Shown here: positions 7,936 through 52,521 of the stretch, in pieces
Layout of the letters: every line of letters starts with the position of its first letter
Numbering within the stretch: position 1 is the first letter of the stretch
DNA from: Hormoscilla sp.
Lineage (GTDB): Bacteria > Cyanobacteriota > Cyanobacteriia > Cyanobacteriales > Desertifilaceae
Length of the DNA stretch: 64,000 nt
NCBI GenBank assembly: GCA_051439505.1
Contig: JBFRWI010000100.1
Location: 1 to 64,000, forward strand
Reading direction: 5' to 3'
Made by a program: the position numbers and the translations under genes
Notes under the pieces: model-generated
What the model saw: the letters and a program-made list of their open reading frames with translations, nothing else
Told to the model about the DNA's origin: nothing
The model's database searches: none

Positions 7936-8022
7936 AATAGATTATCCTAGAGTTTGATAGCGCGAAAGGTTATCCAATCCCTAATATAGAGTCTGTACTC
8001 AATTCTAGTGAGGAGGAGACGG

Positions 8023-11000
8023 ATGACCAGATTTTTCGTAACGCCAGATGACGATCGCGTCACGGGCACCCCAGATAGGGACCAGATATCGGGCCTGGAA
8101 GGCAACGATCATCTCAATGGCGCTGGCGGAAATGACGAACTGCGCGGGAACCAGGGTGACGATATCTTGAACGGCGGTCCGGGACGCGATCGCCTGTTCG
8201 GAGGCCCAGGTCGAGATACCTTCATCGTGGGACCGGGAAGTCAAACCTTGAGGAATGCGGATATAATTGCAGATTTCCGTCCAGGTCAGGATTTAATTGG
8301 TTTAAGGAACGGACGGGAATTTGCTGACCTGGAGATCCTAGGTAGCGACAACACGGTCCTGCGCGATCGCGTCACGGGAGAATTTTTGGCCATCATCCGG
8401 GGAGTGAGTCCCTCCGAAATCACCCCAGAGGACTTCACCCGGGACAGGCGGGACGGACGTCCTGCGGAACTGCGGGCAATTTCTTCTATCGAACTCAGCG
8501 GGGCAGAAATTGTCGCCCACGACGACTCTACTCAACGGTTGTTCGCGGTCACGGGGAACGAGTTCCTGGAAATTATCGATATCGCCGACCCCACCAACCC
8601 CATTCCGGTGGATAGCATCAATCTCGAACCCTTTACTGCTAACAGTGTCGCTGCGAAGAATGGCATTGTGGCGGTCGCCGTTGAAAATCCTGTCGCCCAA
8701 GAACCGGGACTGGTAGGATTTTTCGATGGGGAAGGAGAATTTTTCGGTGCCGTCACTGTGGGGGCCCTACCGGATATGGTTACTTTCACCCCCGACGGAG
8801 AAAAAGTTCTGGTGGCCAATGAGGGAGAACCTAACGATGACTATACTATTGACCCGGAAGGTTCTGTCAGTATTATCGATCTGTCTGGTGGGGTTGCTAA
8901 CCTGACTCAGGATAACGTTACTACTGCTTATTTTGCAGCCTTTAACGATCGCCTCCCCGAACTCGTCGCAGAGGGAGTGAGGATCTTCGGTCCGGGGGCC
9001 ACGGTAGCGGAAGATGTGGAACCAGAATATATCACGGTTTCCCAAGATTCTCAAACTGCCTGGATTTCTTTGCAAGAAAATAACGCGATCGCGCGGTTGG
9101 ACATCAACGCTGGAGAGATAACGGAAATCTTCCCCTTGGGTTTCAAAGACCACAGCAAGCAATCAGTTCTGAATACATTCTTCTTCAACCCTGGGTCGTT
9201 ACCCAGTCTGGGAACTACCGATGCCCGAGGCGAGATTAAACTGAGTGGTTTCTCAGGATTATACTATGAAGGGGTTAATCCAGACAATGGTAATTTGCAG
9301 TTTATCACCCATCCCGATCGGGGACCCGATGACGGCACCGATGAAAATGGCGATCGCATATTTATCTTACCCGAGTTCCAACCCGAATTAGTCCGCTTTG
9401 AACTCGATCGGGAGTCGGGGGTATTAGATATTGTCGATCGCATCGGTCTGAAACGTCAAGATGGCACGCCCCTGACGGGTTTACCCAACCTGCCAGAATT
9501 AGATCCTGATACGCCCGTAGATGAAGATGAGAACCTGTTAGAGTTCGACCCCCTGGGAATAGATCCTGAAGGAGTGGTCGTGGCGCCGGACGGAACCTTC
9601 TGGTTAGTAGACGAATACCGTCCCTCCATCTATCACTTCCTCCCCGACGGAACTCTATTTCATCGCTACGTACCGGAAGGACTGGACCCCGCAGTGGGAA
9701 CGCCGGCATTACCCGCCCTGTATAGTACGCGGCAACGCAACCGAGGGTTTGAAGCAGTGGCCTACGAGGAAGGGAAAATCTATGCTTTCATTCAAACCCC
9801 ATTGAATAATCCTACCTCAGGTGAGTCCCAAACCATTCGCATTCTGGAATTCGATACAGAAACGGCCACTACCACCGGAGAATACCTCTACATTCAGGAA
9901 GATATGGGAGGTGGCAGCGATAAAATTGGCGATGCCGTATCCTTGGGGAATGGAGAGTTTTTGGTCATCGAACGTGATTCTGGTTTCGGTCCGGAGTCCC
10001 AGAAAAAAATATTCCACATTAGCATCGATGACGCTACCAATATCCAAGAGTTGACCCCAGACCCCGATGCTACTTTTGAAAGTTTAACACCAGAAGCATT
10101 GGCAGATCAAGGAATTAATCCTGTCAGCAAGTCTGTCTACGCCGACTTGACGGCCTTGGGTTACAGTTTTACCGATAAACCAGAAGGGTTGGCCCTAATT
10201 GATGAAAATACGGTTGCAGTCCTGAATGATAATGACTTTGGGGAAACAGGGGTTCCTATAGGTTTGGGGTTGATCGTCAATCAAAATGGCCACAACGCCC
10301 TAGATCCATCAGATCGGGATGGGGAGATTAACATTCAAAACTGGCCGGTCCTGGGCATGTACCAACCAGACGCGATCGCCTCTTACGAAGTCAACGGCAA
10401 AACCTACATCGTCACGGCCAACGAAGGGGACAGTCGGGACTATGATGGTTTCAGCGAAGAGGAACGAGTCAAGGATCTGACTCTGGATCCCACAGCATTT
10501 CCCAATGCCGCCGAACTGCAAGCAGATGAGGCGATCGGTCGCCTGCAAATTACCACAACCTTGGGCGATCGGGATGGAGATGGAGACTATGATGAAATCT
10601 ATGCCTATGGCGGGCGATCGTTCTCCATCTTCGAGGCCACAGATACGGGTTTGGAACTGGTTTTCGACAGCGGCAATGATTTCGAGAAGATTACCGCCGA
10701 GGTATTCCCCGACTTTTTCAATTCCGACTTCGATGACGAGGAGGAAGTTTTTGAATTCGAGAGTCGCAGCGACAGCAAAGGACCGGAACCAGAAGGAGTC
10801 GTGGTGGGAGAAGTGGGCGATCGCACCTATGCCTTCATCGGCTTAGAAAGGATTGGGGGTATCATGACCTATGATGTCACAGATCCCTTTAATCCCAGTT
10901 TCGTCCAGTATCTGAATAATAATCCCGAGTTTCTGGCCACAGGAGACATTGCCCCGGAAGGACTGACCTTTATCTCCCCAGAAAATAGTCCCACAAACAA

Positions 11001-11073
11001 TCCTCTATTAGTTGTCGGGAACGAAGACAGCGCCACAACTACAATATTTGAGGTAACGCCGACATTCATCTAG
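8023..11073 (+). CDS. Large alkaline-phosphatase-like protein: RTX Ca-binding repeats + choice-of-anchor I beta-propeller with inserted phytase-like esterase domain
   Basis: GGxGxDxL repeats; VGALPDMVTFTPDG, VANEGEP, MYQPD, TANEGD, RSDSKGPEPEG; inner DRGP, DPEG, VDEYRP, RNRGFE, NDNDFG; AGGAGG RBS. Confidence 0.88.
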   Translation: MTRFFVTPDDDRVTGTPDRDQISGLEGNDHLNGAGGNDELRGNQGDDILNGGPGRDRLFGGPGRDTFIVGPGSQTLRNADIIADFRPGQDLIGLRNGREFADLEILGSDNTVLRDRVTGEFLAIIRGVSPSEITPEDFTRDRRDGRPAELRAISSIELSGAEIVAHDDSTQRLFAVTGNEFLEIIDIADPTNPIPVDSINLEPFTANSVAAKNGIVAVAVENPVAQEPGLVGFFDGEGEFFGAVTVGALPDMVTFTPDGEKVLVANEGEPNDDYTIDPEGSVSIIDLSGGVANLTQDNVTTAYFAAFNDRLPELVAEGVRIFGPGATVAEDVEPEYITVSQDSQTAWISLQENNAIARLDINAGEITEIFPLGFKDHSKQSVLNTFFFNPGSLPSLGTTDARGEIKLSGFSGLYYEGVNPDNGNLQFITHPDRGPDDGTDENGDRIFILPEFQPELVRFELDRESGVLDIVDRIGLKRQDGTPLTGLPNLPELDPDTPVDEDENLLEFDPLGIDPEGVVVAPDGTFWLVDEYRPSIYHFLPDGTLFHRYVPEGLDPAVGTPALPALYSTRQRNRGFEAVAYEEGKIYAFIQTPLNNPTSGESQTIRILEFDTETATTTGEYLYIQEDMGGGSDKIGDAVSLGNGEFLVIERDSGFGPESQKKIFHISIDDATNIQELTPDPDATFESLTPEALADQGINPVSKSVYADLTALGYSFTDKPEGLALIDENTVAVLNDNDFGETGVPIGLGLIVNQNGHNALDPSDRDGEINIQNWPVLGMYQPDAIASYEVNGKTYIVTANEGDSRDYDGFSEEERVKDLTLDPTAFPNAAELQADEAIGRLQITTTLGDRDGDGDYDEIYAYGGRSFSIFEATDTGLELVFDSGNDFEKITAEVFPDFFNSDFDDEEEVFEFESRSDSKGPEPEGVVVGEVGDRTYAFIGLERIGGIMTYDVTDPFNPSFVQYLNNNPEFLATGDIAPEGLTFISPENSPTNNPLLVVGNEDSATTTIFEVTPTFI

Positions 11074-11163
11074 TCATTCGTAGGGTGGGCGGTGCCCACC
11101 TTACCGCATCGGGTGTGGTCATGCAGAAGTCACCGCAGATCTCCCCTTCAACCGTATCAAAAT

Positions 11164-11377
11164 TATTTAAAAATGCGCAGGAGAGCCCTACCACAGGGCC
11201 CTCCTTGTGGAGTCTAAGTGAGCGATTTAGAGATTTACCTGACCCGGAGTTACGCAAAAAGCGCCTGTTTCCGTTGCTTGACCCAAGTGAGGCGCTTTTT
11301 GCGCAGTCCGGGCCGGGCATCCCTGGTTTCGCTTGGGCTTGTGTTGATTTTCCAAGCCCCCATGAACCTTCATTTAT
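11164..11377 (-). ncRNA. Candidate structured small RNA (~200 nt), unassigned
   Basis: TTGACA-17-TATATT promoter, three stems with G-U pairs favouring the minus strand, terminal hairpin followed by U-rich run. Confidence 0.55.
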
Positions 11378-11383
11378 AAATAT

Positions 11384-11412
11384 AATATAGCTAACTTTCT
11401 GGAGTTTGTCAA
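11384..11412 (-). promoter_or_regulatory. sigma70-type promoter TTGACA-N17-TATATT
   Basis: Reverse complement of 11384-11412. Confidence 0.7.
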
Positions 11413-11635
11413 GGGGTAAGGGAAAAATTGTTTTTCCCTCTTATGGGATATGTGAATTCCGGTACTACGGGTGCGATCGGGTGCAGGTGCGATCGGATGT
11501 GGGGGTGCGATCGGGTGCGATCGCGAAGATAATGTAGGGGCACGGCATCAACAGATTATGGGAAAGATGAGAATGTTTGTATCGCCGTGCCCCGGCCCCA
11601 TGGGAATGGGCATGGGGATGCGATCGCCAGTCGGT

Positions 11636-11962: not shown

Positions 11963-12009
11963 CAAGCACATATTGACAGACTGTCTGCACTTGTTAACCA
12001 CCCATCAAC

Positions 12010-12158
12010 GGGTGTGGTCAAAAGTAGTTGTAGAGGATCCCCCCAAACCCCCCTTAAAAAGGGGGGCTTCCGGAGGCCCCCCCTTTTGGAAGGGGGGGTT
12101 TGGGGGGGATCCGGCGACTGGGGAGGCGTTTGAACTATCAACGGGTTTTGACCACACC
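12010..12158. mobile_element. MITE with GGTGTGGTCAAAA TIRs and 10-bp direct flank
   Basis: TIRs 12010-12023 / 12146-12158; ACCCATCAAC at 12000-12009 and 12159-12168; solo ends at ~34997 and 59594. Confidence 0.8.
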
Positions 12159-12272
12159 ACCCATCAACCGGGAAATGAATTGCACGTTGTGACCGATGAA
12201 TTTTAATTAATATGGTTTACAGCGTTCCCGGGGGATACAAATTATCAATTAACCATTGCTCAATTTCCCGTA

Positions 12273-13424
12273 TTAACTTCTCTGATAGCGCATACCCGGC
12301 AACTGGGACACCAAACCCAACAACTCCAACTGCAACAAAGCACTAGAAACAGAACTAGCATCCATGGCAGCTTCCTCGACAATTAAATCAAACAATATCG
12401 CCTCTGACGGTACAGCCTCCAACACCTTGGCCAGGTCTGGCGCTAGATCCGGTACAGAAGCTGTTGAGGGCGCAGGCGCAAACAATTCCAACTGTTCGGC
12501 CTTCTGTGCATTTGTCGAGACTGGCGCAGGATCCAGTTGGGGAATAGCACCCAACATTTCCAGCAGATAACCCTCACTAATAATCAATTGGGCCCCCTTA
12601 CTCAGTAGCCCCAAACAGCCCTGAGACTTCCGATCGTCCAGACGCCCAGGTAAAACATAGACATCTCGCCCAAAATCATTGGCCAAGCGGGCGCTAATCA
12701 ATGCACCGGAATTCACAGGTGCTTCCATGATCAACACCGCACGACATAAACCGACAATAATCCGATTGCGTTGGGGAAAGTGAGCCCGATCGGGTTGAGT
12801 ACCCGCCGGATACTCGCTGACCACCAACCCCTGCTGAAGAATTTGTTCGTAAAGCTCTTTATTTCGAGGCGGATAAATCATATCCACCCCCGTACCAAAG
12901 ACCGCGATCGTCCGTCCGCCGGCTTCCAGACAACCCCGATGGGCTTCACTATCAATACCCTGTGCCATACCAGAAACAATAGTAAAACCCTTTTGAGCAA
13001 GAGTACGACTAATGCGGCGAGTCCAGCGTTTACCATAGTCAGTAGGTTCCCGCGTCCCGACGATCGCCACAGATGGTATCATACCTTGATTTTCCTCACG
13101 TCGCACCAGCCCCCGGTAATAAAGTACCGCAGGAGGATTAGGAATTTCCCGCAGCAGGCGAGGATAGTCAGCATCAGCAGGAGTCCAAAAATGCGGATTG
13201 TCTCTTAAATGCGCGGCGGCGAGTTTTTCCGGGTCGATCGCCTTACGGGCCGCCAACACTGCCGCCACCGTCTTAGGGCCAAACCCCTCCACTTGCCCCA
13301 AAGCCGCAGCATCCGCATGCCAAGCCGCTGCCATGGTACCAAAATGCCGTTGCAGACGCAATAGCAGAATCGGTCCAATGCCCTTAATTTGGGACCAGGC
13401 CAACCAAAATGCACCTTCTGCCAT
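12273..13424 (-). CDS. dprA: DNA-processing protein DprA
   Basis: YPRLLREI.NPP, AIVGTR, VSGMAQGID, FPQRNRII, SGALISA, C-terminal winged helix. Confidence 0.96.
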   Translation of the reverse strand: MAEGAFWLAWSQIKGIGPILLLRLQRHFGTMAAAWHADAAALGQVEGFGPKTVAAVLAARKAIDPEKLAAAHLRDNPHFWTPADADYPRLLREIPNPPAVLYYRGLVRREENQGMIPSVAIVGTREPTDYGKRWTRRISRTLAQKGFTIVSGMAQGIDSEAHRGCLEAGGRTIAVFGTGVDMIYPPRNKELYEQILQQGLVVSEYPAGTQPDRAHFPQRNRIIVGLCRAVLIMEAPVNSGALISARLANDFGRDVYVLPGRLDDRKSQGCLGLLSKGAQLIISEGYLLEMLGAIPQLDPAPVSTNAQKAEQLELFAPAPSTASVPDLAPDLAKVLEAVPSEAILFDLIVEEAAMDASSVSSALLQLELLGLVSQLPGMRYQRS

Positions 13425-32344: not shown

Positions 32345-32445
32345 GGGAGCATCTCACTTTTGTAATCTAGCCCGCGCAGGCGGGCTTTGTTCGAGTAGCC
32401 GGGCCCTTTAGGGTTCGGGCGGCGACGAAAATATGAGATGCAGCC
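32345..32445. mobile_element. MITE (GGGAGCATCTCA…TGAGATGCAGCCC) enclosing a REP
   Basis: Terminal IRs; relative at 54668-54834. Confidence 0.6.
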
Positions 32446-52369: not shown

Positions 52370-52521
52370 CCCACATCCCCACCCTCAAGGGTGGGGCTAC
52401 AGGAACGAAGCAATTGTCTAAGCGAGCGCAGCGCGGCAACCGCCTGCGCGGGCTAGTTACGCCCCCACATCCCCACCCTCAAGGGTGGGGCTACAGGAAC
52501 GAAGCCCGCCTGCGCGGGCTA
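52370..52521. repeat. Two REP copies CCCCACCCTCAAGGGTGGGGCTAC…
   Basis: Direct repeats 52370-52412 and 52463-52505. Confidence 0.8.

Follow-up and report, generated by a model that had tools for sequence, protein, structure and literature searches.

The window, a stretch of 64,000 nucleotides from a Hormoscilla genome (G000), carries on its minus strand a structured RNA gene with its own promoter, lodged in a stack of repeats with dprA (12273–13424, minus strand) on one side and a convergent choice-of-anchor I/phytase-like gene (8008–11073, plus strand) on the other; both protein-coding genes lie outside the RNA element, dprA forming the upstream flank on the same strand as the RNA. The promoter (TTGACA at 11412–11407, a 17-nt spacer, and TATATT at 11389–11384) matches at 11 of 12 positions and is the best of three promoter-like sites between 10000 and 12500, a region whose shuffled versions yield 2.3 such sites of any quality; upstream of it lies an A/T tract (11413–11445) resembling an UP element, which recurs in nearly all copies (diversity 0.31). 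The predicted transcript of about 209 nt runs from 11377 to 11169. On its 3' side the gene is fused to one lone end from the GGGTGTGGTC MITE family (11111–11121, minus strand), next to a palindrome (11080–11104) that we take to be REP-like. This MITE family is also represented by a complete 150-bp element (12010–12159), bracketed by the 9-bp duplication CCCATCAAC at 12001–12009 and 12160–12168. Elsewhere in the window, two isolated CRISPR-DR28 matches (32368–32391 and 52498–52521) score just above the cut-off; since other loci also have a similar GCCCGCCTGCGCGGGC palindrome next to them, they are probably a repeat and not a CRISPR array.

The minus strand between 11160 and 11385 folds with –97.8 kcal/mol (z –7.7; none of 200 shuffles as good), and the predicted transcript alone with –94 kcal/mol (z –7.0; equalled by none of 200 shuffles); the plus strand of the same region is also well folded (z –6.4). 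An earlier note had outlined the promoter, a 5' hairpin, a long rod with a 16-bp stem and a GC hairpin, and all of these letters are where it placed them. In the refined fold, a GGUU strand (11365–11368) forms the pseudoknot helix P1 with AACC at 11328–11325, and the P2 hairpin (11335–11359) stands between its two strands. The rod is built from the 5' half of an invariant core (11303–11334: P3, the 3' strand of P1, P4, P4b and P5) and a 3' half that supplies the P5, P4b, P4 and P3 partners (11221–11252); between them extends P6 (11251–11305), whose 16-bp stem (11305–11290/11266–11251) has at its tip a loop containing the semi-conserved motif GGGUYAARCAAC (11284–11273). The P7 hairpin (11179–11205) and a GCGCA plus U5 tail (11169–11178; diversity 0.018 in G000) complete the RNA.

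Not all of the structure described in the earlier note carried over into this fold. Its 11/12 terminal inverted repeat (11371–11382/11164–11175) is present in the window copy, but the closing role given to it is not borne out: the repeat is unconserved, five of the 12 letters of its left arm lie upstream of the predicted start at 11377, and its pairing is absent from the predicted fold of 11377 to 11169. The GC hairpin is likewise followed by a U run, yet this run starts 5 nt past the hairpin, so that P7 and the U run are unlike a textbook intrinsic terminator; the U run is, moreover, missing in many copies from a second genus (see below), and P7 may accordingly be structural rather than a terminator. 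The Rfam scan of the window copy returned no family at the cut-off, and a search of this copy and five distant ones at gathering and E-value thresholds found no relevant family, in agreement with the earlier note, which had not recognized the RNA as 6S, SRP, tmRNA or RNase P.

The locus is not the single orphan small RNA that the earlier note had supposed. By BLAST, 30 places in G000 match the region, 28 of them with the core and 25 at full length; these correspond to 26–28 loci, as one copy has an interruption and a further two stop at contig ends, the last two probably being the 5' halves of two others. A covariance model found 2, 0, 0 and 3 copies in four congeners (G001–G004, respectively) and 9 in the closed genome G078, which together with G169 represents one genus of another family; a second model recovered 15 copies in G169. 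Carriers thus comprise three of five Hormoscilla genomes and both genomes of the second genus, the latter being two of the 19 genomes of its family. No further copies appeared in 151 genomes of the order and 151 of the phylum. A relaxed pattern applied to 401 genomes was multicopy in Hormoscilla and the second genus only; 11 further genomes had one or two matches each, which are pattern matches carrying no model score and look like chance. Scanning all GTDB species gave 25 loci, namely five in Hormoscilla, 11 in "Oscillatoriales cyanobacterium S07.Bin090" and nine chance matches that reach at most 19.3 bits, against 89–97 bits for two true members. Three of 16 metagenome loci were members, and the other 13 lacked the remaining parts of the RNA on inspection. 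A weak match in G052 falls in a coding region and was rejected as a member. Phage, plasmid and viral collections held no match to the RNA family, and no more distant sister family was found in G000.

Within the second genus, three divergent subtypes occupy shared loci in G078 and G169 (L039/L070, L042/L075 and L044/L073), and the main subtype is polymorphic; genes of the PD-(D/E)XK Rpn type adjoin two of the three divergent-subtype loci. Because two of the five Hormoscilla genomes are without the RNA, the family is dispensable. Three G000 copies are decayed (C145, C149 and C228): one is cut by a heptamer tandem repeat, one is cut by a MITE within P7, and in one the RNA is wholly replaced by heptamer repeat. 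The literature searched contains no description of this RNA; the main text of a study of 202 cyanobacterial genomes (PMC12873609) does not name Hormoscilla, its supplements being a place where the motif may be listed, and a term search of an account of Hormoscilla genomes (PMC6520454) found no mention of transposases, introns or non-coding RNA. The RNA family is real, uncatalogued in Rfam, and narrow in range, being confined to two genera among the genomes searched.

Conservation within the family follows the promoter and the RNA. Of the 57 copies for which upstream sequence exists, 56 retain TTGACA and, at a distance of 16–18 bp, a –10 box of the form TAnnnT (that is, with A2 and T6); the genome-wide density of such sites is 0.05 per kb. 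No ORF is common to both genera, including small ORFs on either strand. The reading as an independently promoted, non-coding structured RNA is supported. Pairwise diversity over 22 full G000 copies is 0.000 in the –35 hexamer, 0.291 in the spacer, 0.121 in the –10 hexamer and 0.285 in the leader, an AT-rich, element-borne segment of 6–17 nt on the 3' side of the conserved promoter. In the RNA body it is 0.000 in GGUU, 0.006 in the 5' core, which the second genus shares, and 0.055 in the 3' core, where the P3 partner stands at 0.018 and values are 0.02–0.06 throughout except for a 3-nt linker at 0.457. The P2 stem is conserved (0.01–0.04) and its loop variable in length, with 30% gaps; the P6 cap motif is intermediate (0.11), and the 16-bp stem varies in sequence and length (0.14–0.21). 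Loops and linkers as a group range from 0.19 to 0.46, against 0.006 in the core, and the flanks from 0.44 to 0.57.

Base pairing was assessed across 18 sequences from both genera, for a fold of P1, P2, P3, P4, P4b/P5 and P7. Of 727 cells, 96.1% are paired, compared with 22–56% in slid controls; changes on both sides of a pair occur in 12 of 41 pairs (seven of 11 in P7, two in P3, two of four in P1, where 90% of cells are paired, and one in P4). None of 500 shuffles scored as high, with the caveats that the sequences are related, that the structure was drawn from the same sequences, and that P2 and P7 were fitted by the aligning model. P5 is the most conserved helix, with nine of 11 pairs invariant and no two-sided change. 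Where pairs deviate, G-U outnumbers A-C by 45 to 3 cells and by 13 to 2 pairs; the RNA-level bias that the earlier note had read from five G-U stem deviations in the window copy is upheld, while the count itself is six plus one marginal pair. By folding energy, the sense strand is the better one in only 23 of the 57 copies. Variation between subtypes includes a P1 variant, GGCGA/UCGCC, in L044 and L073, and a P6 that is much shorter in most second-genus copies; the RCC of P1 also covaries with a 3' GGY, which makes an alternative pairing or a switch possible. Gene conversion alone could homogenize the core among copies. On the combined evidence, selection very probably acts at the level of the RNA and its promoter, as expected of a real RNA gene.

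Public RNA data contain the RNA in part: eight libraries from six studies include a portion of it, and the RNA body is covered by contigs from four RNA runs, X4 having the greatest depth (369–751 over 11181–11328, against 0–2 over the promoter); such contigs may hold DNA, also cover neighbouring repeats, and are blind to transcript ends, strand and level, and since their ends are possibly graph branch points, uncovered parts prove nothing. The genomic neighbourhood is heterogeneous. Among 59 neighbouring ORFs at 31 loci there is no reverse transcriptase (RT), no IscB and no IS110 protein; no neighbour family recurs more than twice, and no gene is common to the loci. The presence of an RT beside homologues, which the earlier note had proposed as a check, is thus negated at all 31 loci.

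Two known RNA classes resemble the family in outline and were rejected as its identity. Like 6S RNA (RF00013), it is a rod-shaped RNA of similar length, and it would likewise be abundant and act by binding a protein; in contrast to 6S RNA, it gives no match to RF00013 and is without the large central bubble, and G000 has a separate, single 6S gene. The bridge RNA of IS110 elements, as described in part in PMC11208160, likewise has a 5' stem-loop followed by internally looped stems within a similar length; the present RNA differs by forming one rod instead of two guide-bearing stem-loops, by internal loops of 3–5 nt, by an intact internal promoter, and by the absence of an IS110/DEDD recombinase from the 59 neighbouring ORFs.

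Since the promoter and upstream DNA are copied together with the RNA, movement would take place at the DNA level, and it is highly likely that the RNA gene travels as DNA cargo. In Hormoscilla the most visible vehicle is the genus-wide MITE with GGGTGTGGTC ends, which has 569 ends in G000; 96 of 166 end pairs are flanked by duplications of 8–10 bp, mostly 9 bp. This MITE encloses varied cargo. Of 33 Hormoscilla copies, 12, the window copy included, carry one of its ends at 228–294 bp downstream from the core, and five (C54, C156, L115, L125 and L128) sit in whole MITE composites with target duplications of 8–9 bp. The C156 composite occupies an lpxA–lpxB spacer, and its site is empty in G002, G003 and G004 (L159, L160 and L162). 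The window copy keeps one MITE end, and the matching duplication was not found upstream; the site of the 150-bp MITE in the window is empty in L154 and L156, and the RNA site itself has no clean empty allele, the genes after dprA differing in relatives. The target duplications flank larger composites and not the RNA gene, which has ragged ends, no conserved terminal repeats and no flanking target duplication of its own; on these grounds the RNA was rejected as being itself a MITE. The possibility, raised in the earlier note, of a many-copied element with target duplications therefore holds for the five composites and fails for the RNA, which lacks terminal repeats and is multicopy in a genus where the GGGTGTGGTC MITE is missing.

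A mover for these composites may be encoded at C102 (L207, G000:C102:12439–14879), where inverted repeats of about 250 bp that begin with MITE ends, flanked by a 9-bp duplication, enclose an ISKra4-like transposase with a score of 179.5, below the family cut-off of 205. This ORF is a candidate for the autonomous partner, since p-MULT elements are described, in part of PMC3942029, as making duplications of 8–9 bp; the transposase may also be a nested insertion itself. Known MITE-flanked composites (p-MULT/ISKra4 and Pack-MULEs; described in parts of PMC10969869 and PMC3942029) are alike in that outer MITE ends carry a passenger, with duplications of 8–9 bp and, as at C102, an ISKra4-like transposase between such ends; here, however, what is carried is a whole non-coding RNA gene, and the transposase is assigned only putatively. 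Small RNAs and promoters borne by MITEs (Cbsr3, Cbsr13 and Cbsr16 of QMITE1/2 in Coxiella and the Correia element in Neisseria, as far as PMC10969869 covers them in part) share with the present family the multicopy, intergenic state, a sigma-70-like promoter, an RNA product and mobilization in trans; unlike them, the RNA is not the MITE but a passenger next to one of its ends, has no terminal repeats, shows conservation between two families, and occurs in many copies even in the absence of the GGGTGTGGTC MITE. Other cassettes were seen with similar MITE ends: a composite at L208 (G000:C174:29000–30404) contains a promoter and an HU-like/DUF4469 gene, of which a second copy lies at C227, and in a five-copy cassette (G000:C100:114543 and four more sites) a TTGACA promoter and a G-rich tract are accompanied by a MITE end, with no ORF seen.

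Most copies lie outside a recognizable composite, as indicated by a generic search for repeats plus duplication that flagged 3 of 60 copies and 2 of 60 control promoters. In G078 and G169 the GGGTGTGGTC MITE is no more frequent than expected by chance, no vehicle made of repeats plus duplication was found for the 27 second-genus copies, and the presence of a copy differs between these two genomes at one tested site. The copies are mosaic (140 of 210 site pairs are four-gamete incompatible), and in seven of the 25 full G000 copies (C33, C102, C105, C116, C138, C189 and C213) the 3' junction, about 10 nt or less from the U run, falls at GCGATCGC, which we take to be HIP1. This mosaicism, together with junctions located at other repeats, makes recombination a plausible second means of spread. 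Intergenic DNA of the second genus (L050, L211, L153 upstream of arsA, and L210) is built up from interchangeable cassettes stacked between AGAAACCGGGTTTCT repeats, among them the RNA gene, another promoter cassette and a toxin-antitoxin-like gene pair.

What the RNA does can be approached through its conservation pattern. The reading that we tentatively prefer, at somewhat less than even confidence, is that of a protein-binding decoy or scaffold: the conserved bases lie in paired helices and short A-rich loops and not in a long single-stranded seed, the promoter comes close to the consensus, neither position nor neighbours matter, and copy number resembles a dose. The element would be a self-contained gene with a strong sigma-70-type promoter, a pseudoknotted RNA of about 205 nt and a 3' hairpin; the promoter would yield an abundant, stable RNA whose invariant rod base, pseudoknot and A-rich internal loop could form a protein-binding surface, acting in trans on one protein, most plausibly a mobile-element protein or a toxin or nuclease. 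Extra copies would raise the dose and would for this reason be retained intact. In Hormoscilla, one copy may have been captured next to a MITE end and then mobilized in trans, with the ISKra4-like protein as the candidate transposase; further copies, as well as those in the second genus, may have spread via recombination among intergenic repeats.

A related reading, which we consider possible and rather unlikely, regards the RNA as an RNA-only mobile cassette: lacking any protein of its own, it would hitchhike on repeat systems that differ between lineages and sponge up the protein of a rival mobile element, possibly a group II intron RT. RNA copies and RT matches run in opposite directions among several genomes (28/3 in G000, 15/6 in G169, 9/19 in G078, 3/46 in G004 and 0/93 in G002, with two copies and, at a stricter cut-off, 45 matches in G001), but G003 (0/7) and nine other genomes of the second genus's family (no copies, 0–4 RTs) do not fit. 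This inverse trend among carriers is a weak lead, and a confounded one, as fragmented assemblies lose introns; the RNA has no sequence likeness to group II introns. G000 contains a single full copy of a group II intron RT (G000:C125:26795–27451), compared with 34–62 strong RT matches in G001, G002 and G004; the gene that it interrupts is presumably tnpB.

It is unlikely that the RNA is an inert repeat that spreads with MITEs and other repeats, keeps its core through gene conversion, and is transcribed incidentally or to insulate neighbours. The dispersal of ragged-ended, mosaic copies in repeat-rich intergenic stacks, the folding of both strands, the absence from two of five Hormoscilla genomes, and a Hormoscilla copy number that tracks MITE ends (ends/copies 569/28, 327/3, 183/0 and 211/0) are consistent with such an origin. 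A passive sequence would hardly explain, however, that invariant and drifting segments alternate sharply within a few bases, both promoter hexamers included, that compensatory changes occur, or that another family, whose flanks differ and which has no GGGTGTGGTC MITE, shows the same core and promoter.

Descent from the HEARO/omega-RNA (RF02033) of IscB and IsrB, shrunken and rewired into a short-guide RNA acting in trans or an IscB decoy, is quite improbable. There is a resemblance in outline: omega-RNAs, as treated in part in PMC9581776, which also mentions standalone forms, are pseudoknotted, of about 200 nt, multicopy and ORF-less in cyanobacteria, and by eye four short motifs (GGGGCUU..AAGCCC, ACC.GGG.UGC, GGGUUAA and AAC..GG.C.AGGYAAA) follow an order similar to that of cyanobacterial HEARO. 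IscB and the RNA also co-occur in G000, G001 and G004 and are both absent from G002, among these four Hormoscilla genomes. Yet statistical similarity is lacking: RF02033 matches no copy, the model of the RNA family misses the HEARO RNAs of G000, and an nhmmer profile of 24 HEARO sequences gave no match, with z above 3 in only one of 10 copies. The SL4 hairpin is incompatible with the supported rod, IscB or IsrB is never adjacent to RNA copies, and the closed genome G078 and G169, despite 9 and 15 copies, have no RRXRR protein, leaving these two carriers without IscB. In place of the sharp left end and flank-derived guide seen in the true omega-RNAs of G000, the RNA has its own conserved promoter. 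These omega-RNAs form a separate, ordinary family with two full IscB genes of 421 amino acids and 14 HEARO matches, mostly ORF-less and with a sharp left end (G000:C41:32968–33495, C2:75254–75986 and others).

Two further proposals are, in our estimation, highly doubtful, each to about the same degree. A small self-cleaving or ligating ribozyme of a new class, with its active site in the pseudoknot and invariant core, would account for the compact pseudoknotted fold with invariant loop bases, and the topology recalls what we take to be an HDV-like nest without P3; but no Rfam ribozyme family matches at E values up to 10, the linker in which the catalytic C of HDV would be expected varies more than any other part of the RNA, and cleavage has no obvious use in a cassette that runs from promoter to hairpin. 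A base-pairing small RNA, or the antitoxin or mRNA of a type I toxin-antitoxin cassette, would agree with the individual promoter, the 3' hairpin and the setting among small cassettes, for example with PIN, Uma2 and DUF29 genes; against it, the conserved bases are mostly paired, neither strand has a small ORF common to both genera, and the genome has no notable complementary match elsewhere (best E 0.014). Finally, the retron msr-msd likeness seen in the earlier note, with an RT in trans, is extremely improbable: the long stem and terminal repeat that suggested it are combined in the window copy alone, the repeat being partly untranscribed and unconserved and the stem a variable part, and although RTs occur in all five genomes tested, none is among the 59 neighbouring ORFs and their number does not rise with copy number.

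The family is a repeat-borne small RNA, mobile as DNA cargo, and adds a structured RNA that Rfam does not contain. Its fold is supported by covariation, its promoter is conserved, and a single genome holds as many as 28 copies; to our knowledge, bacterial non-coding RNA genes are rarely this numerous, apart from those for tRNA, rRNA and transposon guide RNAs. Its narrow range of two genera limits its reach, and within that range a whole RNA gene travels as MITE cargo and was amplified independently in two families. If the RNA were a ribozyme or a rewired omega-RNA, it would represent a new compact scaffold; a decoy directed at mobile-element or toxin proteins, the reading that we tentatively prefer, would constitute an RNA-only layer of genome conflict.
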